Source of the DNA: Lama guanicoe
Taxonomy: Eukaryota
Reading direction: 5' to 3'
Assembly: GCA_013239625.1 (NCBI GenBank)
Contig: MU053860.1
Span: 1-64,000, forward strand
Length of the DNA stretch: 64,000 nucleotides
The translations under genes were made by a program, and so were the position numbers. Shown one piece after another: positions 8,990-38,819 of this stretch (the stretch's first letter is position 1; the number at the start of each line of letters is the position of its first letter). The notes beneath the pieces were generated by a model, which saw only the letters and a program-made list of their open reading frames with translations, was not told the DNA's origin and ran no database searches.

Positions 8990-10593
8990 ACAGAGACATT
9001 AAAAGGTTCTACTCTAAACAGAAAGGAAGCAGGATGCTATAGAAACAGGAAAACCATAGTTGGAAATGCAATAACGAGTTACAAGGGAATAAATATGAAG
9101 ATGTAAAAAAGAAAAAGTACATCAAAATACAAAAAGGTGGGAATGGGAGACAATAGCAAGAAAAGATAGATTTTTCTCTCTTTCTTTTTTTTTCTCATTA
9201 TTCTTAGGATGTATTGGACCCTACGTGATTATCAGTCTAAAGGAAATAAATATAGTAATGGGTTGATATACTTGAAAAATAAGGTAACCACAAATCGGAA
9301 GCACACAATAGAGTCACAAAAAAAAAAACCCAAAAAGAAACAAACTCAAAATGGCTTAGGGACTTAAACATTAGATAAGACTCTATAAACCTCTCAGAAG
9401 AAAACATAGGCAAAACATTGTTTGACATACATCTCAGCAATGTTTTCCTAGGGCAATCCACCCAAGCAACAGAAATATAAGCCAAAATAAACAAATGGGA
9501 CCTAGTTACACCTATCAGCTTTTTCACAGCAATAGAAACCATAAGCAAAACAAAAGACAACCTGTGGAATGGGAGAAAATATTTGGAAAAGATGAGACTG
9601 AACATGGCTTAACTTCTAGACTATATAAGTAGCTCATACAACTTAATAAGAAAAAAAGTAAACAACTCAATCCTAAAATGGGCAGAACAACTAAACAAAC
9701 AATTCTCCAATGAAGATATACAAATGGCCAATAGGCAGATAAAAAAAGGCTCAATATCACTAATTATCAGAGAAATGCAAATCAAAATGACAATAAGTTA
9801 TCACCTCACACTTGTCAGAATGGCCACCATTCAAAAATCCACAAACCATAAATGCTGGAGAGGCTGTGGAGAAAAGGGGACCCTCCTACATTGTTGGTGG
9901 GAATGAAGTTTAGTGCAGCCACTGTGGAAAACAGTATGGAGATTCCTCAAAAGACTACAAAAAGTCTTATCATTTGATCCAACAATCCCACTCCTGGGCA
10001 TATATCCAGAAGGAACCTTAATTCCAAAATATACCTGCACCCCAATGTTCACAGCAGCATTGTTTACAATGGCCAAGACATAGAAGCAACCTAAAAGCCC
10101 ACTGACAGATGACTCAATAAAGATGTAGTATGTAGATATAAAAGAATATTACTCAGTCATAACAAAGAAGGAAATAATGCCATTTACAGCAACATGGATG
10201 GACCTGGAGATTATCACACTAAAGTGAAATAACTCAGACAGAGAAAGACAAGTATCATATGATATCACTTATATGTGGAATTTTTAAAAATGATACAAAT
10301 GAACTTATTTACAAAACAAAAACAGACTCACAGACTTAGAAAACAAACTTAGGAGTTTGGGATTAACCATTACAAACTACTATATGTAAAATAGATAAAC
10401 TACAAGGATTCACTGTAGAACACAGGGGAAAATATTCAGTATCTTGCAATCTATAATGGAAAAGAACCTGAAAAAGTATAGACTATGTATATGTACAACT
10501 GAATCACTATGCTGTATACCTGAAACTAACAAAACAGCTGTATATCTGAAACTAACAAAACATTGTAAATCAACCACATTTCAATTAAAAAAA
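8990..10593 (+). mobile_element. L1 LINE remnant: upstream fragment, ORF2 C-terminus, 3'UTR and A-tail
   Basis: ORF 9724-9906 reads [49 protein letters not shown], the L1 ORF2 C-terminal Cys-rich region. L1 3'UTR follows and ends at TCAATTAAAAAAAA. Confidence 0.95.
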
Positions 10594-11061
10594 AGATAAG
10601 CTCTAAATACCTTTATTCAAAGAAAATCTTCAACTCTTACCACTTACAAAAAGTAAAATGGGAAGCTTGAGCAGGACTAAATTATATTGAATGAGATGTT
10701 ACATACCTTCTCCAGCACGCGGCCCATGCTACACACACATCGTGTTTTCCTTCAGGTAAGAATGGCCCTTACTGCCCAGGGAGCGATTTCTGCTGGGATA
10801 AGGCCTCTGTGGCAGTGGCCACCTTGTCACCACTCCATCTCACCAGGAGGCCAGGGTTTTCAGAGGGGAGGGAACACAGAGCTCATACACTTCAGATCTA
10901 TTTCCTGAGAAAAACTATGGAAAGACCGAATTCACCTGCAGTGTGGGAAACATGAGCAGGGCCCCTAAGCAGATCAACAAGCCCAAAGCAAGATGGCCAG
11001 ATGTTCACATCAGAACCAGAACAACAACCCTCTGGCCCCAGTTAATCGATCACCATCTTAC

Positions 11062-11311
11062 CTGCAATGAACTGTTCGTACACAGTGTCAGGGATGTTTC
11101 TGTTGAGATTTGAGAAATCAAAAAATCAGACCAGGGAATCCGGACCTGGTGGATGTCCAGGCTCTGTCAATGGTAGAAGCGGCCCCAAGGGGGTAGCACC
11201 AGCACCGACTCCTCCATTTTCAGCAGGGTCTTCAGTAGGAAGGTGATGTGGATACAGACACCCCTATGGAGGCTGAAGCCCTCTGGAGGGTTGACATCAC
11301 ACAGAAGGTAC
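11062..11311 (-). pseudogene. POFUT2: POFUT2 (protein O-fucosyltransferase 2) exon 2, unprocessed pseudogene copy
   Basis: Reads [82 protein letters not shown]. Human as recalled: [84 protein letters not shown]. Acceptor ccctgccag and donor gtaaga are intact. W->TGA at 11167-11169 and a 1-bp deletion in a T run at ~11122. Confidence 0.95.
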
Positions 11312-11579
11312 CTGGCAGGGAACAAAGGAGAGCGGGTCTTCAGGGCCAGGCCTCTGCACAGGAATCCTGGCTTAGATAAAACAGATACAACAGGAATCCC
11401 TGCACAGCACATGGCCTAGACTCAAGACACGTTCAGCAGCTTCTGGTTTGTATAGTGGAAGCACTGCCCACCCATCTCCATGTGGTCAATTACTTCGAGT
11501 CCGGGAGCACATGCAGAAGACATCTTGGCATCTGTCTAAAAGTGCTAAGCATCTGACTAGTACCTGAGCACCTGTTCTC

Positions 11580-12047
11580 CAGGGGCTCTCAAGCTTCTTG
11601 GCCTACAGACCCCTCTACACTCTTAATTACTGAGGACTCCAAAAGGCTGCTGTTTATGTGAGTTAAATCTATCAATAGTTCCTGTGTTAGAAGTTAAATA
11701 AGAACTTTAAGAAATGCTTATGGGTTCACTTAAAAATAATAACAACCTACTACATGTTACCATTAATACTCAAGCAAAAAATAAGTATATTTTTCTAAAC
11801 AAAAATCATTTATGAGAAGAATAGCAGTGATTTTAATTTCTGCAAATCTCTTTTGGACTGGTGAGAGCTGAATTCTATCTGCCTCTACATTCCCTGTTTT
11901 GTGATATCACATACCTTGTTTTCCCTGGAAAACCCCACAGGAAACTCGGGAGTGCAAGAGTGTGCAAAAGGCAGGTGACATACCGGCATTTCTACGAAAA
12001 TAGTCTTTCATCTCAGGGGCATCAGACACACTTTGATAACTGCTGCC
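11580..12047. mobile_element. hAT-Charlie (Charlie1a-like) DNA transposon fragment within POFUT2 intron 1
   Basis: CAGGGGCTCTCAAGCTTCTTGGCC...GACCCCTCTACACTCTTAA...TGAGGACTCCAAAAGGCT...TGTTTATGTG, ending CACACTTTGATAACTGCTG. Confidence 0.7.
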
Positions 12048-12499
12048 CTACCCTAGGCGAGACTCTACTACACAAGAGCCAGGCAAGGGTCCTGGCTTCT
12101 TTAATGAGTTACCACAGCCACACGCCTGCCTTCTCAGTGTTAATATTTCCCACAGCCTCCATTACTGCAGATGAGGATGTAATCCTCAACTGGGCCCTCT
12201 AATCCCAGAAGACTGCCAACCTTGAGAGGGAGGGCCCATCTACCATCCCTACACCCCGCACAGTCTATTTTGAGTCAAGCCCTAGATAACTGCTAATCGG
12301 CACCGACCCTTGTGTCTTATTCCTGAGGTTTATCAAAGGAACCAACAACTGGATGGAACTGCAATTTCCCTGCAGATAAGCAAGGCTGATAAACCACCCC
12401 ATTCCAACATCTGATTCTGGGGCTCTTCAAAACCCAGGAAAGGCCCCACTTCATAAAAGATGGGTACTCTGCCTGCCCTTCCTGGGGCGTTCTGGGAGG

Positions 12500-13330
12500 C
12501 TGCAGCCACGCAGGGCTACCCAGACTCCCGGTCCCAGCCCCAGCGCCCGAGGAGGAGGAAAGCCCGTGGCTGTGCCCCCGCCCTGTCCCCGCCCCCGCCC
12601 CCAACCCGCTCCCCGGCACCACAGCCCCTCCCCGACCAGCACACCAACCCGGATCCCACCCCGGTCCATGTCCAATGGCCCCGCCAATGTCGCGGCAGTA
12701 CGTTTACCGTCTGTGGAACGCCACCCCAGATAGGATGTCGGCTGCCGACTGACCAGGCCAGACCTAGTCGCCCGGCTGAGCAAGCCGCCATCCCCAGCAG
12801 CAAGCACTGCCGTGGTCCCGGGCAGCTGCACACTTTTGGAGCCCTCTGCACGTCCCAGAAGCACACGCTGGCCCGTGCGGAGTGGGGCGCCTGTAGCCAT
12901 GGTGACGCCGCGGGGCCCTCCCCTAGCGCTTGCGTCTGAGTCCTCCCGAGGCTAGACGTGAGAGGGCAGAACTTGCGGAGCCAATGGGAGCCAGGGCGTG
13001 GCCAGGACGGGGGCTGGGGGGAGGCTTATGGGACAGCTGGGCGGGGCCGGGGCGGGCGGGGCCGCGCGGAAGTCCTTACCTGCAGGTGGCACCGGCTGGA
13101 GGCTGGGGCGGTGCTGCCACCAGTGAGCGGGGCAGCGGGGCGAGGGCACCCTCACCTGTCCGTGTGCGGTGCTCAGTCTGGGCTCCGCAGCCTCCACTTG
13201 CACTGGACGTGGACCCAGGCTACTAGTGGGCAAGATAGAGGACTGAGCCCAGGCACGCACGGCTGGCCAGGTAGGGCACCTGAAGTGCAGATCCGCCAGG
13301 CCCACTGCTGGCCTTGAATTCGCGCTTCTG
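12500..13330. promoter_or_regulatory. CpG island / bidirectional-type promoter copied with POFUT2
   Basis: High GC and CpG density. RFX X-box-like GTAGCCATGGTGAC (12893-12906), CCAAT (12981), GC boxes (~13039-13062), ETS CGGAAGT (13067-13073). Confidence 0.8.
12708..12813 (-). pseudogene. POFUT2: POFUT2 exon 1 coding part, decayed
   Basis: The 3' half reads VWPGQSAADILSGVAFHRR|gtaaac (human FWPGQSAADILSGAASRRR), and an LLLG signal-peptide remnant lies upstream. The start codon appears as ACG (12811-12813), with deletions and frameshifts. Confidence 0.9.
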
Positions 13331-16300
13331 GGCAGTTTCCAAGAAGACGGGATCTGTCCCATAGGGCAGGGGTGCCAAATGCCGGGTTGGGTGCAGTCTT
13401 AAAGGAGAGCCACGGTGAGAGGGAGCAGAACAGCCCCTGTGTTGGTGGGGCTAGGAATTTGGGGTATGGGGTGGGGATGGTGTGTGCCATGCTCCCCAAG
13501 AACTCTCATCCCCAAGCAGGGGACCCTGCTCCCTCCACCCTTCACTGCATCCCCTGCCTTCCCCAGCACCACCGCCCCTGCCCCTGGAGTGTCCCATGAC
13601 CTCTCCCCACACCAGGCACTGTCCCTGTTACAGGTACTGAGCTCCTGGTGGTTCCAGCCCGAGGGTAGGGGCTGTATCTGACCAGTTAGGATGCCTGGAG
13701 CCTTTGTATGAAACCTCAGACCATAATGCAGCTGTGCACAGAGGCCCCTCAAACAGGATTCCCTGCATGGCCCTCCCCACCACGCACCCACAGTGCAGCT
13801 GCCACACCAAGCCAAGCCTGCCAGAGGACAGCTGGTTCCTCTCCTCCTGTCCCTGGTCAAGAGTGCACCGCCCACACTGCTGGGTATTTAGGGGGCCTTA
13901 GAAGAGCAGCTGGTATTTTCATGGGCAAATATTTGCTCTTTTGGGAAGATTTGGGTGCAAAGACATGTAGGGTATGCTTTTTCTGTTGCCCTGGAACTGG
14001 TGACTAGAATACAAACTTAAGTCAAAGTAGTTTTTAGAGAGATCTGCAAAATATCTAACCCAAAGATAACTGTTCCCCAACAAAGGCAACACCACCTGGC
14101 TGGTGGGGGGCCTGGACCCTCTTTCTGAAGGTTGGGGTTTGCACCTTCCAGCTGTGACAGCCTGAAACAGCTCTGAACATGCTCCAACAGGCTTTGCCAG
14201 CACAAACTGCCTTTATTTTGAATCTGGGTGAAGGAACCAGCTGAGAAATCTGGGTAAATCTTCCTGAGTGTAACCATGCCCATTATGCTGAATGAAAGAA
14301 CGGCTCTCCACATGCTAACATCTTAGAATTGAATGTGTGTCGAAGCCTTCATGCATGTAGCATGTTGGGAACAGTGTTTCATGGTGAGGGGAACTATATA
14401 ACTTACATGTGTATGGGGAAGCACTCGCTCGAACTGGGTATTCCAGTGCATAATGCCTTTATTTTGAAACTGGCTTCTCAGAAGACCTGTGGTCTCCACT
14501 GCAGGTCTGTCTCCAAGCCCAGGGCCAGCATGGTGACTCTGCTCCCCCTGTCTATTCTGGGAGGTCTAGGTGTACTCCATGGCCCTTCCGCCATTGTTTC
14601 TTTTGGAAACACCCTGCAGATGAAATGGACCTGAGAACAAGAGAGCTGGATGCCAGCAGCCACTGCCCAGTGTGTGGTTCCTGGGAGGGGCATCTCCTCT
14701 CCGTGGACTCTGATCTCCCTTCCCCCCACCCCCACCCCTCTCCTCCTGCATTTCCTGATTGATTCCGGGATAATGGTCAATACCAGGAATGACCTGGGAG
14801 AGGTTTTATGAGTCTTTAAGGGAAAAAAAAGAAATCTTTAGACAAATTACTGAAAGTAACTTCCAGCTTTCCCGGGAAAGTCTTTAATCCAGTGTTTAAG
14901 GCTAGTTGACAGGGTGTCAAATTGCCTAACCACTCACATCTGAGCAAGTGCTACTTCTCTCTCCAGTTCTCCAAAGCATCCACGTGTGGCAACTTGGCCA
15001 CAATAGGGCAAGAAAGCTCTTTCCCCAAGTCAGCGCCAGGGTGGCTTTGGAGGCAGTGGAGGCTGAGAGAAAGGGCCCCACCCTGAGGTTTGGGGGTCCG
15101 CCAGCCACAGCCAGAGGAGCGGGGGTTATCAGAGTGGCCCAGCAGGGAAACCAGGCAAGGCCGCCTGGCCCAAGTCTTCCCTCCCCAGAAAGCCCCATGA
15201 ACTGCTCTGGGCCCCACTCCCCAATTGGGCCCCCCTGCAAAAAGGTACCACAGGATCCACACCTGAGAAGGCAGAAGGACTGCCCTTTGGCCTGGGGTCA
15301 AAGCAGGTTTGTCCTGAGAGACCTGTGGCCACATATCTTCCTTGTCTCTCCAGGACACTGAAGGGTCTGTGCTGGGCACCTTGGTGATCAGGGACATGGG
15401 AATAACTCTAAACTCTGAAGAAGGACAGAGAGACTCTTCTGGAAGCAAGGATTCCAGGGAGACGCCTTGCCCAGAACTGGGGGACTGTGTCCTGAGTAGA
15501 CCCCTGGGAGGCAATGTGGGGCTGTGGGGTCCTCTTCAGAGAAGGGAGTGGGTGTGCTTTCTGGGGGTGGGGCCCTGCTTTGTCCAGGCATGTCCTTGTG
15601 TAAGACTCATTTACAAACACCTCCCAGTCCACCTAGAGGTGGCCCCAGGGGTGGGAGTAGAGGAGGAGAGTGAAAGGTGCAGACTTAGGGCCCCCTGACC
15701 CACACAGGGAGCCAGGGGTCAGTGGGAACATCTTGGGAGTCTAGTGCAGGGGTGGAGGAAGAGCACTAAGAACATACCAAATCATGCAATAAAGTGACCT
15801 GTGACCATGAGACACAGGTGGCTGTACACCAAAGGAGGGAGATAGAAATTTAGACCCAGTTTCTGAGAAACTTGAGAGGGGCTGGAGTGTCCCAGGAGCC
15901 CTCAGGGACAGCTCTTCTAGGGGCACAGATATCCCAATACACACATTTCTCATGGATGCTTTTTGGGGTGCAGAGTGAGTTACCAGGATCCTGAACTTAG
16001 TATGGAATCCCACCCCCTTTTTCATCACGCTTCCTGGCAATAAATTGCTGTCATTTGTCCCTGGACATGCACAGGGGAGCTGACTGCTGTGGGGGTCACT
16101 GCAGGACTAGAATCTTCTGCTGTGGGCTCTGTGACCACAGAAACCCAGGGGGATTTCTCAACGGGAGGACCTGGAGACCATGGCTGCAAGGACCACCCTC
16201 ATGGGATGGCCAAGAAGCCTGTGGTACCCAGGTCACCAAGTGACAAATTTGTGAGGTTTCCTGGGGTATCCTGGGGCATGTAGATTTCTGTGGTCAGCAC

Positions 16301-18699
16301 GTGGGCCCAGCACTGTGAGATGGTCTGCACAAAGAGGGGCCTGCCCTCCTGATGATGGCTCCTAACACCTGCAGGGAAACTGCTCCCAGGGCTCCTGGAG
16401 GTCCATATTGAGAGTGTCCTGCCAGCCATGTGGGGTCACCTTCCACTGATGCAGAGGCAGACCTCTCCCCCTTGAGGCCCAGGGGACACCTGGCTCAGGT
16501 CCCACCTGCATGCCCTGGACACGCAGAGCCCCACAGTTCTGGCACAGCCTTGGGTGTGGTCGTGTTGGGGCAGGAAAGGTGCATGGAAGGGGCTCATACA
16601 GGGGCAGAGACCACTCTGCAGGGATGCTGGACCTGGCAGTGATGCACTGCTTCAGAACTCCCCTGGGCTGGGTTTCCAAGCTGTGGGATGGAAGGGCCTC
16701 TCCTTCCTGCGGTGCAGTGGGGGGGACTAGATCCATAGTCAATGTCAGCCCTGAAAATGGAGGCTGCACTACATCCATTCCTGGAAAGAAAAATCAGGCC
16801 CCTCCAGTCCAGGTGACTCAGAAAGTCATTCAGCTATGTTCAGGGTCCCCAGTTTAGGCTTGCAATTAGAACTGAGTGGCTCAGGAGGCCAGCTCCCTGT
16901 CCGTGGCTCCAGGAGTAGGCTTTCTGCTGGAGGACAGGATCCCCACAAACACCTGTGTCTTTGTGGGACACTCCCCTCTGACCAACTGGGAGGCAGGGTG
17001 CAGTTGTGGGAAATCATGTTTCCATGAGCAGAGGACCACCTAGTGGTAGGGGCACAGGAGACTGTGAGAAAGAGTCCCGCAGGCTTTCTGGACTCAAAAA
17101 CCTGGCAAAGGTGAAAAAGTGCATAATTTGTTTTATTGAACAGGCCGCTTATGTACGTTTGGAGGGCCGGGTTCAAGGACTCTGCATCCCTCCAGGACAA
17201 TAGCCTCAAGAGAAGAACAGACAGAGCAGGAGGAGATCTGGGGTTTCTCCCAGGAATGAGGCAGAACAGGGATTTCTGCAGATTTGCAAGGACTCCCCAG
17301 TCACTGAGCTCGGGGTTACAACCCCTCGTGACCCCTGTCGTGTTTGGCTTGGGCTCTGGGTCTGGCCTGATCACGTATTCTTCCAGCTGAGTTCCAGAAA
17401 CTCAGAGGGTGGACTTATAGGGGCTGCGTTTGAAACCTAGTGAGGAGGTGGAGGACCCTTTATATTGAGTCCCTTCAGCCTAATCACCATAACTGAAGCC
17501 CAACACCCCCAGGACCCCAGGGTGGCCGTGGAGGGAGAGCAAGCCTGGCAGGCGACCTAGGGGCCCCAATGTTGTGTCCCTCCCTTGTCTTCTTTCCCTT
17601 TCACCCCAGAAGGTGTGATTGTCTCGTGTCATAGTGGCCACCACAGTGTCCCTCCCAGCAATCTCTCTTCTCCATCAGGTGGGGTTCCCACCCCCGCTCA
17701 GCCTTCTCTCTGCATGGATGCTGAAGGTGCAGGACCACCTGAAATTCTGAGCTTGAGCAGTAAGGTGGAAACAAAGAAACCAATTAAAACAAAGAAGCAA
17801 GTGATTGTGGCAAAGCTCCCCACCACAGAGAAGCTGCCCTGAGTGGAAGGGAGGGTGTGGGCATGCCCATTTGTTTCCTGTCTCCCAGTGCTTTTAGCTT
17901 TCTTATTGCAGACCTGCATGGTTACAACAAAATGATCTGCAAAACTGAAAATATTTACTTTCTCGCTTTTACAGAAAAGGCTGGCCAGCCTCTGGTCCCG
18001 GTACCAGGCAAGTGATTGGAGTTCCTTTCCAGTTTGGAAACATCTGGGCAGACCCAGGTTTGCAAAAGTCTTTAAGAGTAGTTATGGAGTTTTGTTTCTA
18101 AAATGTTTTATGGCTTTATATACTTCTGAGATGCAGTTGTGCTGTGTGATTCTGAGCCGGGATTTTCTCAAACTGTTTCTCACTTCTTATACCAGACATT
18201 CCTAAATTTCAAGAGGAACTGCATATTAAGGAAGCCATGGAATTTAGGAAGAGGATACAGATCTCATTTCCTTTTAAGCATCGATGTACCTCCATCATGG
18301 CAGTATTGGTTATGTGTTACTGATAGGGGAACTAAATAGTAACCAGATTAATAGAAAATAGGGGAATTTAGGTACACAGGTTCATCTTTTCAACATTTTT
18401 TTGTAATGTTTGCAGTTTAAGATCACCATTCCTGAGAAACAGGCAGCTTCTTAGATTGAAATAACATTTCCTCTGAATGATACTTAATTTTTATTTCATA
18501 GACAGCAGGAAGGGTAATCACACATCACACATTTGGGGGTGTCAAAGAGTAAATGTAACTTTCTGGGAGCGAACTCCTCTGTCTCCCCCTGCTCTTTTCA
18601 CTGTCCCATTCTCCCTGGATGGCTCTTTCTTATCTTCTGCTCATTGCTCCAGTAATTGTTTCTTCCCCCTCGTCCCTCAGCTGGTAAGGTTACTTTTCT

Positions 18700-21040
18700 A
18701 CTTTGAACAAGCAAACAAGACAACAGAAGAGAAATTTCACAAGCATCTCCCAGTACATCTGCTCGCTTTCTGATGTCTGTGATCTCACTCTCAGTGTCCC
18801 ACCTCTTATTACAAGTGACATCAAAAGCCAGTTCCTCCAAAAGTCCCCGGGGCACCATCCCTCCCATCTTCTCTGGGTTGTCATTCCCAGAACCATCCTC
18901 TCTTTCACTACCTCATCTATTTTGTTCTCCTGCTAGTTGGCTCCCATCAGTATATAAACGTCCATCCTCTGAAAAGAAACAAACAGCACTCCTTGACCCT
19001 AATTCACCCCCACCAATTGCCACCCTGTGTCTTTACAGCAAATCTTTAAGGAGTTGTTTAAATTCACTGTCTGCACCTTCTCTTGAGCCATCCCCTTTTA
19101 CACACACTCTGGCTTTTCCCCTGATCCCTTGCTCTATGGAAACTGCCCTGTCAAGGCCATCAGTGACCCCACTTTCCTAAATATAGTGGTCAATTTTCAG
19201 TCCTCATCATGCGTGGCCCCTCGGCAGCATTTGACCTAGCTCTTCCATCCCTCTACCCCCGTGTTCCTGCTTCACTCAACCTTCAGCCCATCGCTCTGTC
19301 TGCTTTTTGATTTTGGTCTACTGGCTGATCCTTTGCCAATGTCTCCTCTTTTTTCCAAACATATACTGTGGGTGTGCCCCAGGGTTGGTTCCTCTCCTCT
19401 CTCTCTCTGCTATTCCTTTGGTGGAAGCAACCCAGCCTTGGAAATTGGCATGCCATCAATTTCTCGATTTCTCCAAAACTCCCTGATTTGCCCTTTCCAT
19501 CTGGACCTTTATCCCTGAGACTCACATTCTTTTTCTTTCATTCATCTTGCTTTCACATTCATACATATGTTCTACTATGTAATTACTATTCCAAATTTTG
19601 AATCAGTACATATATATCATGTAAAATGCTCAAATCTGTATTATTTTCACTAAGATGCTTATTCTACCTTAGAACATGTCTGCATTTCTGTATTTATGTG
19701 AATAAAACGAATAGTATTTCTACAAGCCTCATAGTTAAACAGTGTGTTTGTTTGGGGCTATTATGTAACATGAAATAATGATACATCAACATAGTCCTTT
19801 TTCATTTATTTTTATGTAACATCGAGATGAGGTTTTTGCACTGAAGACTGGTTTTATTGAAATTTTACCTATGTTACAAACAGTCAGTTTGTAACATAAT
19901 AAAGCCCTCATTTCTCCCCTTTTCTGATATATTTTCCATTTGGCTATATAAAACATATACCTTGGAATGAAATAAAATTCCCAAATCATTCACATAATAC
20001 AATTAATACATTTAAATTATATTTTTATATGTTAAAAAGAAAAAGAAAACAGACTCCTCTACGTATTAGGCATTTCTGTGGCAATATGTAATACACCCCT
20101 TAAACATGACATTGAAGAACTGAGCTGATACCAGCCCCTTTCCACCTGCTCAGCCCCACCATGTCCCATACCCTGTGGATGGAGAGGACAGCCCTACCAT
20201 TGTCCAGGTCCAGATGTTGAAACCATGTCCTTTCTCTCTCTTTCTCTTACACACACAGACAGCAAATCCAGCTTGTTAGAAAATTCTGAATACTCTGTCT
20301 TCATTAACCACCTGCTCCCCGCCCTCCTAAGAGCCACCTTCAGCCCTTCCTGGACACCAATAGCCTCTTGTTTCCATCTTGGCTTTCCTACAATCTTTCA
20401 TCCACACAGAGTCAGAGGGAGCCTGTAAAAGCATACATTGAAGGGGTGGGTGTAACTCAGTGGTAGGGTGCATGCTTAGCATGCATGAGATCCTGGGTTC
20501 AATCCCCAGCACCTTCATTAAAATAAATAAATTACCTCTCCCAAAAAAACACAAACACAAAAGCATAAGTTGGACTACATCACTCCTCCCCTCAAAACTC
20601 ACTAAACGGGTCACAATTTCATTAGGAGCCAAAGTCGTCCCAAAGGCCTCAGGACCCGGCGTGCTCTGCCTCTCCGCCCACACTCTCCCCCTCACTCTGG
20701 GGGCCTCTGGCTCCGGCTCTTCCTTCTTCCTCCGGATCTATTCTGCTTCAAGTTCATTACTCCGTGAGATCTGCCAGGATTGCCTTATTCCCTCCTGCCT
20801 GCCTCCCACCCCACCGCCATCACCCGAGTTTGCTCATATCACTCTTTTTTTTTAATTTTTCCAAGCTCTTGCTACCCCCAACATGCTGCCTGTTTCCTCT
20901 GCTAAAACTCTGAGCCCCCAGTGATGAGGAGTCATGTCTATTTTGTTGACTGATAAAGCCCGAGAGCCTTGGGAACGAGTCTATTTAGGAGATTCTCATA
21001 CATAGTAGGAGCTTATACAGATTTGCTGAATGAATGTAGA
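18700..21040 (+). mobile_element. Fragmented L2 LINE, interrupted by an AT-rich block at ~19530-20100 and by a SINE
   Basis: CT-rich L2 motifs (GGAAACTGCCCTGTCAAGG, CAATTTTCAGTCCTCATC, GGCAGCATTTGAC) and an L2 3' end ATTTGCTGAATGAATG at ~21020. Confidence 0.7.
20442..20560 (+). mobile_element. tRNA-derived camelid SINE (Vic-1-like)
   Basis: GGGGTGGGTGTAACTCAGTGGTAGGGTGCATGCTTAGCATGCATGAGATCCTGGGTTCAATCCCCAGCACC (Pol III A and B boxes), an A-rich tail, and TSD-like AAAAGCATA on both sides. Confidence 0.85.
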
Positions 21041-24000
21041 TGCCCTGGTCCAATCCGATGGAACACTTCTGTGTCCTGCTCAAAGAATAACTCTCCTTTC
21101 CACCTGAGAGGGGGTGACAACTTCCCTGCTGATTAAAGGCAAGAACTTTTTGCTTTATGCTGTTAACCTTAGGCAGGGAGACTGGGGGCTCTTCATATAT
21201 ATTTTTAAATTTGGTTCACTCTGCAGTTGGTCTTTGGTCTCTGTATAATTTTGAGAAACTCTTTATGAGTGATCATTCTTTCATCAGATTGAACAGGGTC
21301 CAGGGGGAAGGACCAAGCCTGTCCCATTGGCCATTCTTTGTGTCATGCCCTGGGACCCAGTGGATGCTCAGCATGTAAGTGAACAGACAGGAGTGAGCGA
21401 AGAGATGGGAGCATCTCCTTATTGTGGTGGCTGCTCTCTGTCCAATGCCTTGAGATTTGGGGAAGGGTTTACAAGTGCGGAGGGGAGAGGTCAGGTCCTC
21501 TGTGCTCTTCCCAAGTGCCCTGGCCTTACCCAATCCCCAAGCCCCCTCTGGGTAGCCAAGCCCAGGAGCTGGGCCACCGGGGGTTTTGCTGATCAATAAT
21601 CCACCTTCTTCACCCCAAGTCCGGGGGTTAGGTACAACTGGTTGTAGACTCTGGAGTCAGGGCCTTGGAGAAATTCCTCACTGAACTATGTTTTGGACCT
21701 TTTATTTTTCTCTATAACCTCCAGCTGAAGAAGATTGTCTTAGACACATAAAAGGTGAGGACACCTACTATTCCCATGGAGCCCAGGTGGGGCTGGGAGT
21801 TTGCTGTTTGTACAGCCGGTGGGCTTGTGTTGCTTTGGCATCCCTGTGCCTGAATTCCTGTAGTACACTAGTTGGTAAGGATGGGGGTGCCTGGCAGGGA
21901 GGGAAGTGGTCCGGGAGACTGCACAGCTGGGGAGATGTTAACCTGGGGTGAGCAGGAGCCTGCTGATGCATGGCATCTCGGTGCAGGGAACTCTCCACAC
22001 TCAGAGAGGTTCCCACTCCCACAGGGGCCATTTGATCAGGGTGCTGGGCTGTCAGGGGACCACAGGGGTCCCAGTGAGGATTAGGGTGCCTTCAGGCAAT
22101 GGGAAGTGTGGGGTCCAGTGGCAATTGAATTAACTGTGCACCCAAACCCAGCCTCCACCTCTTTCAGCCTGTTTCCTAATCTGCAAAACTGGAATGATAT
22201 TAACCATCCTGCGGGGTTGTTGATGGGCTGGGACAGACTAGACAGTCAGGAGCTGGAATTCCTCTGTCCCCTGATTGTTTTCCTTCTTTCTGACTATTTG
22301 CTCTCACAAGCTCAGTCTCTCTGTCTCTCTCTCTTTCACTTCTAACTTTCTCTCATGCTCTGGTTTCATTTGATTTCCAACTACTGCCCCTCCCCCTCGC
22401 CAATCCCCAGATGAGTGAACTTGATTTCCGTGTATCAGTTCCAAATTCCCAGGAAAGATGCTCTGTCTCCCTCTGGATCTGTTGTCCAACCCACCAGTTG
22501 TGGCCAGAGGAGTGAGTCCTTCTGGGACCAGCGGAGGGTCTCTGCCCAGCCCACCATGCCACCAAGTGGGAGCACATAGCTCTCTGAGGAGGAGGTACTG
22601 GCTGTGACCTTGTGTCAGTCAGTATGAATTTATGTCTCCTCTTGCCCCACCTTCATCCTCCTAAACAAAGATGAAAATTAAACTCTCCCGGGATTTGTGT
22701 CATGTAACACTCAGGGTGGGGGCTAAGGGGGCTGGAATCTCTGCTGCATTTAAGGGGCTACGGTGAACCCCCAAAAAGTGTCTGCAAAGGGAACACCACC
22801 GGCCCCACCCGGCACTTAGGGTGCTGAGTCTGCGTGATGTTGAGCCAGGCTTCTGACCACAGCTCAGGGGTCTGTTCTGACCAGTTAGCCTTTGAAACCA
22901 ACCAGCTTTGGATTCCTCAATCCCTCCCTGAGGTTTTACCTGAACCACCAGCTTCTGTATCTCTGAAGACAGATGATGAGGACCCTTCACGTAAGCCATT
23001 GGCACAGCCCTGTGCAGGCCTTTGTGCTGCACGGTCTGCCTGGCAAGCTGACTGAGGTTGGTATCTTACTGATGTTAGAAATAGTCTGGTTTCCCGATGC
23101 ACTGTTTCACTGAACAAGCAACAGAAGCCACTTCTCCCTGATAAAAGCAAAAAAGGGACTTAATGAAAAGATACTAGGAGGGTGTGTGGAGTGGCCAGGA
23201 CCGGAGCCAACCCAGGAGCTGTAGGTGTTAGGGAGCCCCAGGCACCAGGCCGGGCGGGGTGCTACTGGGTGCCCTGCCACCCCAGGAGGGACACCCCTCC
23301 ACCCGACCCTCCACCTCATTCACTGCAGGTTCATGTCCTGGCAGGGCCAGGTCACACTGAAGCCACCAGCACACACCTCAATGGGGGAGTTGACTCCGTT
23401 TCAGCTGAGGTCGTGCCTGGTTTGGGGAGATGCCCAGTTAGAAGAAGGTGGCTCTCCTACTGTTCCGAGTTAAGGTGAAAGTCAGTGCCCATCACTCAGG
23501 AGAGCCAGACTAGATGGACCTCATTGTGGTGACTAGGCCGTCTGAGTTCACTTATTACTTTCTATGTTTGAAGGCCCTGGAGGGAGAAAAAGTGAAGGTT
23601 CTAGTACTTATTTTGTGTTTCCCATGTACCACGTGCAGTAAGCAAGCCACTTCAGACAAGGCCCAGAACAACTACGTTAATAGGCCATGGAGCAAGTCAT
23701 GCAGTCAGGCCTCTGTGGTCCCGAAACCCGTGTCCCCATCAGCTCCGTAGTTACCAGTGGAAACTGAGGGGATTTATGGGACTGTGTGCTCCTGTTGGGG
23801 CTGGGATGTGTGTGTTTAAATCCACATCTTCAACAACTCCGCTAGAACCACAGCCACTGATTGCACGGAGGCAGAGGAGGGGAGGCTTCCAGCCTCTGGT
23901 CCAGCTCATGTGGAGCTCATAAGTTGCTCCTTCTGTCCTGAAAAGAACACCAGTGCTGAGGGAGCTGCAAACCTACTGCTCTTTTTAGATCCCAGAAAAC

Positions 24001-25439
24001 TGAGGGGCAAAGTTGGTCCCAACCCAGAGAGGCAGCCGGGCAGGCATGGAGAGTCACAGCTCCCAGGGCAGAACCCGCTTTTGTAAGAACCCTGGGGGCA
24101 GGCAGATTTTACAGGTCCCTGAGGCCAGCAGGAGGCTCAGCGTGGGGAAGTCTGAGTGTGACAACTCCAGGGGGCCGGTCAGAGGGGCCCCCTGCTCTTT
24201 TTCATGCATTTTACCTCCAGGACCATGTCCTGTTCTCAGAATGAAGGTCAGAGAAAAACTCCACATGCTTCCTGCCTGGTAAGGAGAAAATAACTCTATT
24301 GAAATACACCCAGAACATTCTGTTTCATTGGGGGAAGTTGTTTTTGGTTTGTTTGTTTTTTTAGTGAGAAATTATTTTACCAGAGCCTAACCATCCTGGG
24401 GGAAGGGAAATCCCTCTGTCTCATCCAAATTGGGCTGGGGGAAAGAGACACAGTTGTGGAGGTCACAGGTCAGGGCATAGGCTCAATGAGAACTAATCAC
24501 AGAACTACAGATGTCCTGCTCTGTTCTACTCCCTCAACACCTTACCTCTATGACAGTAGGGCCTCTGTGTAATAACAGGAATAAAACTAAAAGAAGTAAA
24601 TGTCTCAGGAGTGTCTTGGGAAAACCCAAAGACAGCGGGGAGATGAAAACAAGGACACAAAGGCAGCTTTAGCCTCTCACACCAATAGCTGTAGCAAACT
24701 ACACACAGCCCAGCCCCAGTAGATAAACAGAAAACCTCACAGAAGAAACTATTTATTTTGGTTCTCTTACACAGTGCATTCCATGGTGCATCCTTGCCTA
24801 GAATTGAGTGGAAGCAAGTCCATCTCAGAAGGGGCATAACTGAAGAGGGATGGCTTTCCAGACTCTGACGGGCAGAGAGAGCAGCAGCCTGGGTGAGAGC
24901 ACGGTGAGGGGTGGGTTAGGGGGTGGGCTGCCTTCTTCCCCAAATAAGGAACCTTCCTGAGGCCAGCACAGTGGGAGGGAGGGCCGTGGGGGTGGAAGCA
25001 GCAAGATTTCTTCCTGAGAACTGATGGGATGCCTCCAAGGGACCATTCAGGTGCCCAAACTGGGCCTTGAGGGTGGGAGCCAGTCGGTCTGCCTCAGAGC
25101 CCAGGACTGAATTGGGCACACAGCAGGCAGGTCTTACTTGGCCAGATCCATTTCACTTCCCCAAGCCCTGTGTAAAACATGAAACCTGAATGGCCTGGTG
25201 AGCACAGCTCTGCCCTCAAGACCAGTTGCAATTTCTCTCTTCCCAGAAAACAGCATCTCTGAGCCCATCCTGGGTGACCTCACAGAGATCACCCTAGTGG
25301 CCCAGGCTAGTGACCGGGAACATGTACCTTCCTGTAGCCAACCCCAAACGTCCACTGATGCATCATATACTGGCAAAGATGTGAGTTCCTGTGCATTGGT
25401 CTAACAGCAGAGACTGTGCCACAGGCTGAAGAGTTGGTG

Positions 25440-25625
25440 TGTGGGACATGCAGGGGTGCAGGAGTGTACGCAGTGCAAAGGTGTAAGTGGTGGCAGGGGT
25501 GCAGGGGCTGTGGAGGGTGCAGGCATTTCAGGGGATGCAGGGGGTGCAGGTGTGCAGAGGTGCAGGGAGTGTAGGGGTGCAGGGAGGTGCTCAGGCACAT
25601 GGCCAGGATCAGAAGGCAAGTGCAC
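25440..25625. repeat. Degenerate GGTGCAGGG(G) minisatellite (CAGGG-rich)
   Basis: Repeated GGTGCAGG/GCAGGGG units of ~9-10 bp. Confidence 0.85.
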
Positions 25626-28160
25626 TCGCAGTCAGCCTGACCCCGGGAGGCTAGTGCAATGGTTTGGGGCGGCGGGGGCGGCGGAGGCGGTGTCACGTGG
25701 GAGGCTGCCCGGGCAAGCCGGTCGATTTCTTCTCTTCCCTGCAGCCTGGCCTGGGGGTGCCTTGGCTGCTAGAGATTCACCAGATGTTGGACTCCAGGTA
25801 AGCTTGCTCCTTGGAGGTGGGGCGGTTAGGTCAGCGGGCGGCGGCATAGGCAGGGGGGCAGAGCAAGGCTGCCCCTGGTGAACTGGTGGAATAGCTGCCT
25901 TCTCCTGGCTGCCGGGCCTGGGAGCGGCCTCTGCTGCTCCAGGTCACCAGACGCACCTGTCCCACTCAGCTTGCTGAGTGGGGAGTGGGGGCAGTGCCAT
26001 TAAGGTGCGGGTCCCATGGGGGAAGGGTGGCTGCCACATGGAAGCTGGTCAGTTCGCTCCGTTCTCCCCCGTGGTGGAGCCAGGGGCAGCTTCTGCTGCT
26101 CTATAGAGGCGAGACGTAGGTCTCCAGGTGAGCTTGTTCCTGGGAGGCAGCAGCGGCGCCAGGGGGAGGGGGGCCGTTCCAGGGAGCTTCTCCATTTCTT
26201 CTCTCCCCCTTGGTCTGGCCTGGGGGCGACCTCTGCCGCTGGAGATTTGCCTGAGGTCCGACTCCAGGTGAGCTTGCTCCTGGGAGATGGGTACAGTGCA
26301 GTCAGGGTCTGGTAAGGTGGTGGCTGCAGGGATAGGGAGGCTGCTTCATGGGAGCTTGTGGATTAGCTCCCATGTCTGTGCCACATGGCCTGCAGGTGGC
26401 CTCTGCTGCATCAGGTCCTGGGACACCCCTGTTCCAATTTTCCTTCTGGGGGCGGGAGGCAGGGTAGTCAGTGTGCAGGGGTGGTGGGGGTCGGGGGCCT
26501 GCAGCTGGGAAGTGGGCCCATTTGCTCCCATCTTCCCGGTGGCTTGCCCTGGGGGCAGTCTCTGTTGCCCTGGGTTACGAGACACGTGTATCCTAGTCAG
26601 CCTGACCCCGGGAGGCAGGCGTGGTACGTTGGGGGTAGTGGCAGTAGCGGTAGGTTTTCTCATGGAGGCAGTCAATTTGCTCCCATTTCCCCCCATGGTT
26701 TGCCCTGGGGGCGGTCCCTGTTGTCCCAATTTTGTTAGACGTCCATCTCCAGGTCAGCCTGCTCCCTGGAGGAGGCCACTGTGTGGTCAGGGGGCAGGAG
26801 CATTGGTGTTATGGAAACAACAGGCCAGACAAGAAACAAGCACCACTCGGAGGGTTGGAGTACTCAGATTTATGATGCCGGCGGGCTCAGAGGGGCTTCT
26901 GCTCTGAAGCTCTGAGCACCTCCAAGATGTGCACATGAGGTTTTATAGGGTTAATTACAAGTATGGGGCTATTAGCCAATAAGGCTCAAACAACAAAAAA
27001 CAAGGAATCAGTACACTGGAGCTTATCAATTTGGAACAGATCACGTTACTGACAATTGTTGAGCTGGGATTTACGAGTTAGATTGTTAGCCCAGTAAACT
27101 GACACTAAACTTCAGATTTACAAGTTAGCCCAGCAGAACTTAGATCAGTAAACCGACACTTATCACACTTGGATTTGTGACTTAGCTTGTTAGCCCAGCT
27201 GGGCTTTTCCTTCACAGTGGCTGCTGTGGGGGTAGGGAGCTGCCTTGAGGAGCTGGTGGATTGGCTTCCCTCTCCCCGATGGCCTGGTGTGGGAGTGGCC
27301 TTTCCTGCCCCAGATCACCAGACACACCTGTCCCATTGAGCCTGCTGGTGGAGGGGCGCACTGGGAGGTGTCTTTGAGGTGCAGGGGTGGGGAAGACTCG
27401 GGTAGAGGACCTGCAGCATGGAGCCTTTCAATTTGCTCTCCTCTTCCCCACGGCCAATCCTGGCAGCGTCCTCTGCTGCCCAAGAAGAAGGATGCCCGTC
27501 TCCATGTCAGCTTGCTCCTGGGAAGCGGGCGCGATTCGGTTGGGGGGTAGAGGCAGCTGCGACAGACTGCTGCCCCGCCTAATGGGGTCACTTCTTCTCC
27601 TTTCCCCTGACCTGGACTTGGGACGGCCTCTCCCGCCCAAGATTCGCCTGACACCCCACACCTAGTCAGGTTGCTCCTGGGAGGTGGGCACGGTGAGATC
27701 AGGGGGTGGAGAGGAGAGAGGGCTGTCTCTGGTGAACTGGAGGATGAGCCCCCATCTCTCTGGAGGCCTGATGTGGGGGCAGCCTCTGCTTCCTCTCGTT
27801 CCCAGGTCACCCTTCTCAGGGTCATATTGCCCCAGGGGTGTGGTAGGGTGCGGGGGCGGCAGGGTGTTGGCGGAGGTATGGAGCCTGCTGCTGGGGAGCT
27901 AGTGGTTTAGCTCCCATCTCACCTGCAGCTTGTCCTGGGGCAGCCTCTGTTGCCCCGGGTAGCAAAGCACAGCTTCTCTGACAGATTAGCCACCGGAGGT
28001 GGGCAGGATGTGCTGAGGGGGAGAAGGCAGCCGCCAAAGCAGCGACAGAGGGGCTGTCCCTGGCCAGCTGGTCAATTTGTTCCCATCTCAACCTTTGCTG
28101 CCTCAGTTTCGCAGGACACCATTTTCCAATTTATCCTACTGGGAGGTGGGTGCAGTACAT
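25625..28160. repeat. Diverged GC-rich tandem array, ~14 units of 140-170 bp
   Basis: Recurring anchor (C)AGGT(G/C)AGC(T/C)TGCTCCTGGGAGG at ~25631, 25798, 25965, 26128, 26268, 26436, 26596, 26753, 27336, 27506, 27665, 27821, 27984 and 28128. It is mirrored by recurring VSLLLG and PRSKLTW motifs in the ORF track. Confidence 0.85.
26807..27216 (-). mobile_element. Solo ERV LTR (410 bp) inserted in the tandem array
   Basis: TG...CA termini, 4-bp TSD-like flanks TTGG/GTGG, minus-strand TATA (CCTATAAAA at ~26940-26949), internal TTAGCCCAG repeats, and a sharp drop in GC relative to the array. Confidence 0.8.
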
Positions 28161-28451
28161 GCAGCCCAAGGTCTGCGCTCTCCCCTGGGGAGGGGTACAA
28201 CTCTCTTGTTCTCCTTTGTCTTTATTCTTCAGCGAAGTGGTTACTGGACCCAATTCTTAATTCTGAGAAATTGTAGCCTGTGTTATGGAAGAGCTGCTGC
28301 ACAGTGAGTTTTCTGGGTGGGTTTCACATCAGCTGATGCCCCAGGCAGGCAGGAAAGCTATTACTCAGAGCTTCTTAGTCTGGAGTTGGGAGATGACCCC
28401 ACCATCCTCACCATGCTTGTTAAAAATGTGTTTCTCCCCTCTTTTTCCTAG

Positions 28452-28532
28452 GTGATATTTTAGGACATTGGGTCACAGTTTGCTGGCACACTCATCCCTG
28501 TTCTCAAACATCTTTTAAACTTGGGTTAAGTG
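28452..28532 (+). other. Exon-like 81-bp segment
   Basis: Strong acceptor tttctcccctctttttcctag and donor gtaagt. Open in phase 1-1 (DILGHWVTVCWHTHPCSQTSFKLGLS). Confidence 0.4.
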
Positions 28533-29534
28533 GTAAGTAGGGTAAGATGATTTACTGAAAGGTAAGAATATTTAAACTTGCATTAAAGCTACATTCTGTC
28601 AATCTTTCTCAAGTGATTTTTGTCTGATTCTAAATCCATGACCTAGTGAATGCTGTAGTCCTGTGTAAATCATTGATCTTCACATCACATTTGTTGAGTG
28701 GTCAACGAGGTTTGTTAATTAGATTATTCCTGAAAGGAAAAGCTCAGGCTTTTGAGAATTCCTTGTCTGATGTCACCCAGGCAGTCACAGTAGAAGACAG
28801 AGCTGATTTAAATTTCCCTCAGCTGCCTGAACTGCAAAGTTTCTGGGATTACTGATCCCTGAAATGCAGATGACTCTTGATGATAATGTGGGGGATGGTT
28901 TATATGATCAGATTCTTCCAGTCCTGTAAATGGGTTCCGTGGCCCCAGCCCCGGGAGAACTGGTCATAAGGGCCATATCGTGAGGGGTGGGATGGGAAGG
29001 CAAGGTGTAAGAGCTGGAATCACTGAGATTCCACACTCGCTAAACACAGACTCCAGAGCCTAATTGTTGTCAGGTTGTGTTCTGGATTTGAGAGTGTGTT
29101 CAGACATGATTCTTGCCCTTCAGGAGTCACTGCCTGGGTGGAAGTACCCTTTACATAAATCTGGGGAGGATGGCAATTAAGTAGATGGGCTGTTATTGTT
29201 CTCAGTGTGCCCAGGCTCGCTCTTCCAGGCACTCGTGGGACTAACGAGAGTTAGGTTATTCACTCATTCACTGATTTATTACCCTTGAATTGATCATTTG
29301 TCCCACAGTAAGTGAAACAAGGGATCAGGAACCTGAGTTTTGTCCCTTCTCCTATCACTGATTGTATCTGTCAGTCGGGCGCCCTGAGTATGCATTGTGA
29401 AATGGTGGTATTTCTTGCCCAATGGGGCTGCACTCTCAGCTCTGAGTATCACGGGAGACACGTGGGTAGGAAAGCACCCTGACACACATGGCACCTCCGC
29501 ACCCCATGAGACAGCATTGTCGATGCTCAGATGA

Positions 29535-29720
29535 ACCGATGTAGACCACAGTGCTAAACCTGAGCATGTTTAGTGATTTTGGTGGCTATGAAAATACAGA
29601 CTACCGGTCCCTACATCTGGAGACACTGAGGGTGTGCACCCCAGAATTCTGTATTTTAAGAAGCACTTTAACTAATTCTGATTAAGGTGATCTGAGTGTC
29701 CCACTGATAAACACTGGTGT
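29535..29720. mobile_element. MER5A-like hAT element
   Basis: AATTCTGTATTTTAAGAAGCAC...AATTCTGAT...ATAAACACTGG motifs. Confidence 0.5.
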
Positions 29721-29954
29721 GCGATGCACCAATATTGAGGATTCTCAGGGAGTCTTTTCAGGATGGTCCAAGGGCCCTCACTTGAGACTTTGCCTTGGGT
29801 TTAATTGTATGTGTTCAGAAGTGATGTCTCTCACTTCCAGTGCTTGTCAGCATGATCTGTGCAGGGATTTGCACTCAGTAGATGGCAAAAACTATGATTC
29901 TTCAGGTCACCGAGCTAGACTGTGAGCGATCTTTTATTTTGGTTTTCTTTATTG

Positions 29955-30344
29955 CAATGCAGAGTCTCCTGAAAAAAGATTCAGACTGAACAGCTTTGTG
30001 TCAGACTTTGGAAGACCGCTGGTGCCCAAGGTGTTCTCTGGCAGGGCAATGACAAATCTAGGTCCCTCTTTCACTGCTATGTCAATGAAGTGGACCACTT
30101 GGACAAGGCCAAATCTGATACCCCAACCATAGCCCATGACAGTGATATTCGACTCCAGGAAGCCATCAGATGCAGCATGTGGCCAGTGGAGGAGCCGAAT
30201 AGACTCATGAAATGTGCCATCCCCAACTTCATCAGCATGGACAAGAACTCTTCCTTTGGGGAAGATGATCTCCTGATTTTGGAACCACCGATTGTTCTAG
30301 AAAATAAGCCAGTTGCCCAGACCTCACACAAAGACTTCAGTTGA
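29955..30344 (+). pseudogene. MRAP2: MRAP2 (melanocortin-2 receptor accessory protein 2) last coding exon, unprocessed pseudogene copy
   Basis: Reads NAESPEKRFRLNSFVSDFGRPLVPKVFS/QGNDKSRSLFHCYVNEVDHLDKAK...LQEAIR...IPNFISMDKNSSFGEDDLLILEPPIVLENKPVAQTSHKDFS*. Human as recalled: NAESSEKRFRMNSFVSDFGRPLEPDKVFSRQGNEESRSLFHCYINEVERLDRAK...FGEDDLLISEPPIVLETKPLSQTSHKDLD. The intronic pyrimidine tract is present but the acceptor reads TG. One codon is deleted and there is a 1-bp frameshift at ~30040. The transmembrane exons were not found. Confidence 0.95.
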
Positions 30345-32021
30345 GAAACGTGCTTTGTCAAGTATCTTTCTGAAGATGTGAAGTCTGTCTTTGTATGGCA
30401 TGAAGTCCCCTTTCACAAAATTGTATGTGTTTGTGTCTGAGAGAGAGAAATGGAGACAGACAGAAAGAAGAAGAGACAGAAGACAGCCCCCTCAGAAGAG
30501 AGCTAGTTAAGGTGAGATTTTGTGCCTTTAAAAAACATTTGGGGTTTTGGGGGTACAAAGTATTTACACTGTCTCATTCTCCTCGTTGGAAGCCTTGGCC
30601 CCATACTCTTTGTCAGAGTCCTTGAACAGGGGTTGGGACGGTGCATTTTATCTGGCACTGGCACTTCCACGCTCTGCCTTTAGCACGTTGCTTTGCCTGT
30701 CAGGGCTACCATCCTTTTAACTGTAAGGTGAGGAGTCTGGAATAGATGATCCATCCTAGCTCTGCTGTTTTGCAAATTTCTGATTTCGTATTCAGATAAG
30801 GCTGGGATACACCCAGAACAGTATAAACCAGGCCCTACCTCCTGTCTCTTGCTGGGGCATCCCTCAGATCTGTGCCTTCTACTCAACCCATTACTGAGCC
30901 CAGGTTTTGTCAGAAGCCCAAATGCCTACCGGGATGGCAGGAAACTTGTCTCACGTGGTCACGGTGGCCGACATTTCTATTGGTTGTGCTGAAACAGCTC
31001 TTCTGAGATCCTACAGCCACCTTTGCTCAAACCTGAGGACAGCCCTACCATTCCTTTCCTAGGAGGAGGATCAATCCATGGTGCATTTTATGACAATCCT
31101 GTCCCCAGGAATGCACGGAAGGTTATCAGCTGAGTGAGGGGAGGTGCCTCTTTGTCCCTGTGTCCCTGTATCTCTGTCTGCTCACAGTGCCCTGACACCA
31201 GCTACTGGACAAGAAAAGTGCTATGAACCATGCTTTGTGTTTTGCAGATGTGTAAGTGATGGTCTTGTGGCTCGTGTGTGGGCTTTGAGCTGGGATGGTG
31301 AAGAGCTTAAAAATACCTCATCAACATGTATTTGAGGTGGCCTGGTGCTACACAGACTTGATTCAAGAAGGCATCAAGCGTGCATACTGGTCTGGAAACA
31401 ACTTGGTTTTGATCTGTCACACTGCATGCATGACTCACTGCTAAGCTCTGGGTGGTTTATTCATTTTAGATTTATTCACCCGGTGTCTTGCTTAAACTGA
31501 AAAATACATTTTTTTCACCAGAATATTCTCTGATTCTTTGTTTTCACACATCCATTTTTTTAATTCCTTTAAAAATGATCCTGTGTTTATAATGCCTCCT
31601 AATTTCTATCATCTTTAGGTTCCCAGTGGCCTGAGCCATGCACCAGATTTGATGTAGTAACTGTTCCACCAAAAGAAATCCCTTCACCATAATATCTTTT
31701 GAGGAAAGTATTATTCCTTAAGACTCTAACAGTAAATCATGGAACAAAGCATGGAAAATTTCTTGTAGTTAATACATGTTCATGCAAAAAGAAATATTTT
31801 CATTAAACAATGTTGATTTTAATAACTTTTACTAATGTGAATATTGTTCTTCATAATTTAAGTAACCAAATAAACCACAGTTATTTATTATGAAGATTGA
31901 AAATTATGTTCATGGTTTCTCAATTAGAAGTAGCTTTATTAGAAGACTGAAGGGTATTTTAAAGATGGAAAAATACCCATGATGACACCATCATTTTTAG
32001 TAACTAAATATCAAGAACTGT

Positions 32022-37805: not shown

Positions 37806-38819
37806 GTGGAGAATGCCTCTGGGTTTGAAAGATTGCCTGGAGAATGCTGAAACCCAGGGAAGTGGACAGCACAGACGTTAAATCATTAAATCCTGCCAGC
37901 ACAGTAGGAGATAGAGTCTACATATTCCTCACCATTAAAAGGCTAGGAAAAAGAGGCACAAATAAGTAAAATAATAACAACAACAACAATAATAATAATA
38001 AACATTTCACGAAGATTCACACAGAACTCCCCAGAGGCAGAGTGAGAATTTGTACTCAGGCAGGCTGGCCCCGGAGACCCTGCTCATAACTACTAAATAA
38101 AATGGCCTGGCTTATGTGGATCTTTTTTTTTCAACTGTGATATAATGGTACTGTGTCCAGTAACTTATAACTTCAAAATACCTCACCATAAGGGAATCAT
38201 TAGTCACGGGCATTACAAACCACAGAAAGCTAGACATTCAAAAATAACCTGTTAGGGCAAGAAAATCACTAATGTTTCTAAACATGATACGTGCTGAGCC
38301 TTTGCTGTAAAATGTTTATTTATAATTCTGCCTGGCTACAGAATAACTTCATAATACTGCATGTGGCTGGTGGATCACATCTTGGACAGCAAGGGGCTAG
38401 AGAACTTAAATGACTTGCCAAGCCTCACCCAGGAAGCTCATGGTGGAAACAGATCTACAATCTGGGACTTTTCCTTCTTATCCAGCAAGTCCTTCATGGA
38501 GGCTTAGAAGCTTCTCCTTTGGTGCCCAGCTGTCTATCCATGCTTATGACATCTTGTCATGAGTCCCAGCCTGCTCCTGAACATCAGCCAGTACACACTT
38601 CTGGTCTTTTCTGACCATGTAATATCTCTTAGCAATTTTGGTGACATCAGTTCTTATCTGGAAGGGTAGTTGCTAGAGATGTAAATGTGTCCACAAGAGC
38701 AGACTGACAGATTTTTCATAAACATAGTAGGAGTGGTCAAGGAAAGAAAAAGTCAGGAAGAAAGACCAGCAGAAGCAAGTCATTTAATATACCAAATGAA
38801 TATTTTCAATGTTTGGTTG

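Follow-up and report, generated by a model that had tools for sequence, protein, structure and literature searches.

Does a run of six in-phase segments with splice sites at their edges, found on a Lama guanicoe contig, mark an undescribed protein gene? The window, that is, the whole stretch of 64,000 nucleotides analysed here (contig MU053860.1, positions 1 to 64,000), had received a first-pass annotation in which six exons picked by eye were proposed to splice into a stop-free peptide of about 260 residues. They were assigned either to an unannotated gene running head-to-head from a copied POFUT2 promoter or to a fourth duplicon. We compared the region with its paralogues and source loci, with camelid protein models and with RNA reads.

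The open frame and its expectation by chance

The six segments could be reproduced on the plus strand of the window copy at 14967..15244 (segment 1), 15354..15510 (segment 2), 17679..17759 (segment 3), 21725..21754 (segment 4), 22889..22990 (segment 5) and 25247..25380 (segment 6), each between an AG acceptor and a GT donor, the donor at 15511 being GC. Every segment has exactly one open frame, the phases match, and the spliced total of 782 nt gives 260 codons with zero stops, as had been reported. Three consecutive segments are symmetric and in phase 1, and the spliced peptide is rich in P, S, G and E. The frame closes a few codons past the next exon (25745..25797, plus strand), at the acceptors tested. 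Upstream, the exon at the copied promoter stays open in the matching frame for about 109 codons and carries no AUG in it; no in-frame Met was found across 12601 to 13275, AUGs at 12668, 12984 and 13028 reach stops, and the first Met of the chain is codon 77.

The first-pass annotation had itself cautioned that the phases might agree by chance, and this caution proved well placed. We simulated free exon choice with rough splice matrices, over 45 control regions that may include real genes. With thresholds set at the weakest sites of the proposed chain, 45/45 control regions gave a chain of 260 aa or more, while stricter thresholds (the second-weakest sites) gave one in 9/45 controls, 7 of them with six or more exons, and in 1/13 at matched GC. 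In the same region of the paralogues, 15 of the 18 copies allowed such a chain in antisense, compared with 4 in sense. The best strict chain of the window is 392 aa long and shares only part of the proposed exon set. Phase agreement is not beyond chance under free exon choice.

A mosaic of unlinked loci in many decaying copies

Three unlinked sources (G000:C1971, G000:C5173 and G000:C4240), with sharp junctions, account for much of the region, a mosaic duplication. Block A (9465..17863) holds the 5' end of POFUT2 and the DNA upstream of it, and is 75-80% identical to its source on C1971. Block B (17862..21860), which includes segment 4, is a copy of the unrelated locus on C5173, at 81-86% identity. 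Segments 1-3 derive from DNA upstream of the genuine POFUT2, and segment 4 from a different locus. Further downstream, window 28166-32449 matches C4240, which keeps intact a last coding exon that survives in the window as a decayed copy (29955..30512, plus strand). It is presumably an exon of MRAP2; Pfam, the PDB, the ESM Atlas (scores under 0.9) and a homologue search returned no name for it.

The genuine POFUT2 lies on C1971, where its exon 2 matches the human POFUT2 structure 4AP5 in the PDB (E 5e-54). This locus follows the window up to 17863 and then continues into other sequence, and segment 1 has there a TG acceptor and stops. Apart from a SINE, nothing in 150 kb at C1971 matches window 17864-28166, and segments 3, 5 and 6 are absent from the 70 kb examined at C5173. 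The junction at 17862-17863 is sharp. One paralogue, C6476a, follows the source continuation for ~11 kb at 80%, so that the junction at 17863 would be the derived state; the same paralogue nests within the tree, and some conversion or tree noise therefore has to be allowed for. Segments 5 and 6 match neither C1971 nor C5173, and the top 40 DNA hits contained no source for segment 5. Four single-mismatch matches to a segment-5 motif on other contigs were considered as its source and set aside as chance. Contig C2563, which aligns with window 23835-29924 at 82%, may represent an old copy and not a source.

The POFUT2 part of the mosaic includes its CpG-island promoter. It shares 12500..13270 with the first exon of the plus-strand transcript, which we placed by its donor joint (13270>17679) and by the CpG island, the 5' boundary being a putative start site. 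The promoter block has a GC content of 0.70 and a CpG observed/expected ratio of 0.61, vs 0.79 at the source locus. Decayed copies of POFUT2 exons 1-2 lie on the minus strand, the one of exon 2 (11062..11313) with an internal stop, head-to-head with the plus-strand segments. The proposed head-to-head layout was thus correct, and RNA splices outward from the copied promoter, as described below.

Several other features accompany the mosaic. A GC-rich array of diverged ~160-bp units, of which the exon at 25745..25797 is the first, occupies window 25670-28170; many of its units end in a splice donor, and they serve as optional exons in Camelus models. Inside the array, an insertion of ~410 bp (26807-27216) is absent from paralogues and 94% like a stretch of C6476 near 42.917 Mb; beginning with TG and ending with CA, it is possibly a solo LTR. 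An inverted repeat at 38819-40492, whose arms are 82-90% alike and flank a core of 650 bp, looks like the relic of a DNA transposon. A decayed copy of a large coding exon stands at 46360-46940 on the plus strand; Pfam gave it no name, and it is presumably TRAPPC9 exon 2. In other copies, alpaca models join segments 1-2 to this stretch and to a CpG island at ~41150-41970. Finally, a tandem duplication of ~290 bp (14182-14475) is the mark of the younger copies, which form a clade; the source and the older copies have a single unit.

Probes were run against the same genome, with at most 40 hits scored per search: segments 1-2 had 35 candidates, segment 5 had 62, segment 6 had 55, the promoter had 78 and the DNA that follows segment 3 had 70. 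A 19-base motif of segment 5 had 61 matches vs 2 for a control; 4 of the 61 are by chance, which leaves 57 true ones. Between copies, colinearity extends for 3-20 kb and takes in the introns, identity being about 80-93%; most copies sit on short contigs or close to the ends of scaffolds. In several, segment 1 translates to a peptide that alpaca RefSeq models also have. Related models occur in alpaca, dromedary, Bactrian and wild camel, and the duplicon family should therefore be older than their split. The fallback of a fourth duplicon is supported, the region belonging to a mosaic duplicon of many copies.

The comparison took in 39 further loci, both paralogues and sources, and in 18 of them all six segments can be read. 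The chain is stop-free in 0/18 of these complete paralogues, and 0/18 have the full set of splice sites; with the alternative segment-1 donor at 15154, 0/18 are open and 2/18 have all sites. Hence the statement that these segments, unlike the neighbouring pseudogenes, show no stops holds for the window copy and fails for its paralogues. The proposed donor of segment 1 is GT or GC in 8/32 loci, and the length of this segment modulo 3 is kept in 6/32. Segment 2 carries frameshifts in most paralogues, as it does in the alpaca models, and keeps its length modulo 3 in 8/31. The donor of segment 5 is GT or GC in 17/31 loci and the acceptor of segment 6 is AG in 14/26. Segments 3-6, whose lengths are mostly kept, are open together in 12 of 23 paralogues, 2 of which retain every splice site. 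Majority states among the paralogues are stop-free for segments 1 (in its short form), 2 and 3, which is weak evidence, because an open frame chosen in a copy about 4% from the family majority, as the window copy is, predicts it.

The open frame of the window could in part be an assembly artefact, made by single-base errors in homopolymer runs. The join of segment 1 to segment 2 at 15244 hinges on an extra C, the window having six where close copies have five, and segment 2 of the window is without a C that its tree neighbours carry. The segment-2 state is nonetheless the same as in the older copy C5183, and the chain stays open through all six segments with either donor of segment 1 (15244 or 15154). 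We regard this reading as unlikely, and, if real, it would not change the main verdict given below.

Protein models, transcripts and substitution rates

The gene had been described as unannotated, which is not so for its relatives, many sister loci being already in RefSeq as uncharacterized LOC genes. We retrieved 119 proteins, 118 named camelid models and one unnamed. Segment 1 with the first half of segment 2 was found in 33 of them, segment 4 in 54 and segment 6 in 83. The second half of segment 2, segment 3 and segment 5 were each present in the proposed frame, at 60% coverage or more, in 0/119 models, as were segments 1 and 6 together and the full chain. In one alpaca model (P0054) the frame takes in the final residues of segment 5 and then reads on into the intron. 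The alpaca models use the acceptor of segment 1 and pair it with the GC donor at 15154. Segments 4 and 6 are read in more than one frame among the models (P0125, P0126), whose starts vary and whose frames switch before and after segment 6. Camelus models mostly keep segments 4 and 6 in the proposed frame, segment 6 at 91-98% identity.

A search of 1.84 billion proteins with a profile built from nine camel models gave 15 hits, no named non-camelid protein among them: 12 that are named camelid models or cluster by name with one, P0122, which clusters with a camel model, one repeat protein and one unnamed ORF. The last, of 74 residues, matches segment 4 plus intron, which points to homology of DNA rather than of protein. 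No named non-camelid homologue was found for segments 1, 4 or 6. Pfam returned a single match, at E 0.1, over 11 queries (segments and models), and a PDB search with segment 5 returned none. A literature search over the main texts of openly accessible papers found no paper on this duplicon.

Four RNA runs were mapped to 12400-25850 at 85% likeness. Most records are 85-95% alike, so the reads mostly report sister copies; judging by the segment-4 variant, they are probably from camel. A GT-AG joint 13270>17679, which splices the promoter exon to the acceptor of segment 3, occurs in contigs of run X7 and in 4 raw reads of X21. The other joints, among the 15 listed of 43, are 18057>18681, ~18811>21285, 21374>21725, 21874>~22167 or ~24774, ~24900>25247 and 25380>25745. 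The acceptor of segment 4 is therefore used, with 21374 as its upstream partner; the models run on from this segment to 21874 or ~24774, not to segment 5, which had no junction support among these joints or in the models. Both sites of segment 6 are used. None of the five proposed junctions (0/5) was found among the same 15 of 43 joints, the reads being mostly of sister copies. Four of the joints in sister copies (13270>17679, 21374>21725, 21874>24774 and 25380>25745) belong to splicing that crosses the junctions of the duplicon from the copied promoter.

Contig depth in X7 is 19-47 over segments 1-2, vs 480-2850 in bins with used exons. An RNA skip of 13572-16547 corresponds to a genomic deletion of segments 1-2, carried by the subfamily C682, C2810, C1266, C895 and C8022, and it is found in the expressed copies of X7 and X8. 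Mate orientation in X21, taken from the library type, fits plus-strand transcription. Spliced RNA is abundant in runs labelled reproductive system, and intron-less processed copies of the 3' part of the chimeric transcript, with exons joined at splice sites, lie on C8828 (L096) and C8817 (L095), the latter ending in an A-run; they indicate germ-line transcription at some time. For splicing into the last exons, downstream of 25850, the evidence is that of models and processed copies. The copied POFUT2 promoter likely drives a spliced transcript, and for the window copy we infer this from its sisters.

Selection was assessed by parsimony, with changes counted on two trees (32 and 24 sequences), assuming a transition ratio of 4 and ignoring indels. 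Segments 1, 2 and 3 had a dN/dS of 1.13, 1.08 and 0.97; the value was 1.06 in segments 4-6, and the overall ratio came to 1.09 (248 synonymous and 647 non-synonymous changes, 19 to stops); intron windows read as coding gave 1.18 +/- 0.19 (n=26). The branch leading to the window copy gave 0.99 (8 and 19 changes), and the source against the paralogue majority 0.87 (18 and 36). The three codon positions diverge alike, with no third-position excess, and the segments have indel counts that fall in the range of introns. Segment 5 changes more slowly than its flanks (0.65 vs 1.03 changes per site), with 1/93 windows lower, or 2/93 once CpG sites are removed. This slowness has no codon pattern (dN/dS 1.71) and was seen in one of six segments tested. 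No selection on an encoded protein is seen.

Interpretation and comparison with known systems

The claim of an unannotated protein gene has not withstood the comparison: 0/18 paralogues are intact, dN/dS is about 1, the segments come from separate sources, there is no in-frame AUG before codon 77, and 0/119 models hold the chain. We consider it highly probable that the segments are one copy of a camelid mosaic segmental duplication, in which the copied POFUT2 promoter likely drives a drifting, probably non-coding chimeric transcript, and that the 260-codon frame is a chance chain, chosen among the many splice sites on offer. The region is thus likely a real but ordinary feature and not a new protein gene. 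Its history includes the joining of at least three unlinked loci, the POFUT2 5' end with its upstream DNA, the C5173 block and the C4240 last exon, all of which are seen in the alignments. The block was amplified, as the dozens of copies in both Camelus and Vicugna attest. Transcription runs head-to-head from the copied CpG promoter through strong splice sites in variable combinations, which are observed in sister copies and would extend to the window. Stops, frameshifts and splice-site losses accrue in the segments at the rate seen in introns. Annotation pipelines, by picking the longest ORF of each isoform, may have made many 'uncharacterized' proteins in differing frames out of such transcripts. 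Counting against this explanation are the openness of the window copy through all six segments, the stop-free majority states of segments 1 (short form), 2 and 3, the 12 of 23 paralogues open over segments 3-6, the slow segment 5, the Camelus models that mostly keep segments 4 and 6 in the proposed frame, the 1/13 strict chains at matched GC, the 15 of 43 joints on which the RNA comparison draws, mostly from sister copies, and the source of segments 5-6, which was not found.

Alternatively, the copies could be a recent protein family confined to camelids, chimeric or de novo in origin, in which some make a disordered protein and most decay; isoforms of Camelus that join segment 4, the exon at ~24774, segment 6 and the exon at 25745 would be examples. 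The abundant spliced RNA in reproductive-system runs, the germ-line transcription implied by the processed copies and the open majority states are all consistent with such a family, as are the dozens of RefSeq models that share segment 6 in one frame at 89-98% identity. Yet dN/dS is about 1 on every branch tested, the models differ in their starts and switch frame around segment 6, the Camelus frame past segment 4 is closed in the window, near 21860, and Pfam offered nothing beyond its one match. We consider this family improbable. A bolder reading would be a protein gene in the course of birth, with a strong germ-line promoter placed before non-coding DNA from several loci and an in-frame chain that arose in the camelid ancestor. 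Some copies, perhaps the fully open one of the window, would then start at an internal AUG or at a non-AUG codon and make a disordered, lineage-specific protein, 120-390 residues long; this we think very doubtful. It is most improbable that an old mammalian protein gene of six exons was captured by the duplicon and decayed into these segments: the three symmetric phase-1 segments, the mostly kept lengths of segments 3-6 and the slow segment 5 would suit it, but segment 4 and segments 1-3 do not share a source locus, segment 1 at the genuine POFUT2 locus begins after TG instead of an AG acceptor and contains stops, segments 1, 4 and 6 gave no named homologue outside camelids and the indel counts fall in the range of introns.

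Under the preferred reading, that of a transcribed mosaic duplicon, many 'uncharacterized' camelid RefSeq proteins are explained as likely forced ORF calls, and the duplicon is relevant to camelid annotation, read mapping and RNA-seq counts. The source locus and its dozens of drifting copies also form a natural series for studying how a copied bidirectional promoter recruits non-coding exons. Evidence of translation and selection in any one copy would make it much more important.

Divergent lncRNAs occur at bidirectional CpG promoters, and human LINC00205, beside POFUT2, is presumably one of them. Like the window transcript, it would be a head-to-head spliced transcript at the POFUT2 promoter, a likeness of position; unlike it, the window promoter is a many-copy duplicate. 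Also close are the RefSeq LOC models (such as XP_072814027.1, XP_032347900.1 and XP_064334161.1), which represent the same duplicon and share several splice sites with the proposed chain, but have other exons, starts and frames, none of them holding the chain.

In the accessible text of PMC13122177, ANAPC1P2 and HYDIN2 are chimeric pseudogenes made by segmental duplication. As in the window duplicon, pieces of at least two loci were joined there, the 5' promoter of one parent was co-opted and a spliced chimeric RNA is made. Set against that account, the window duplicon differs in being transcribed away from the parent gene, from the antisense side of the promoter, in drawing its exons mostly from former non-coding DNA, in its far higher copy number and in that no purifying selection is seen. 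PMC13751797, whose main text does not name POFUT2, MRAP2 or TRAPPC9, describes there pseudogene-rich repetitive blocks of the alpaca (NEK10-, ATF5-, FMN2- and ABHD17A-like). Like the window duplicon, these are dispersed, multi-copy gene fragments in repeat-rich camelid regions; according to that text they are absent or reduced in camels, whereas the family of the window is expanded in Camelus too.
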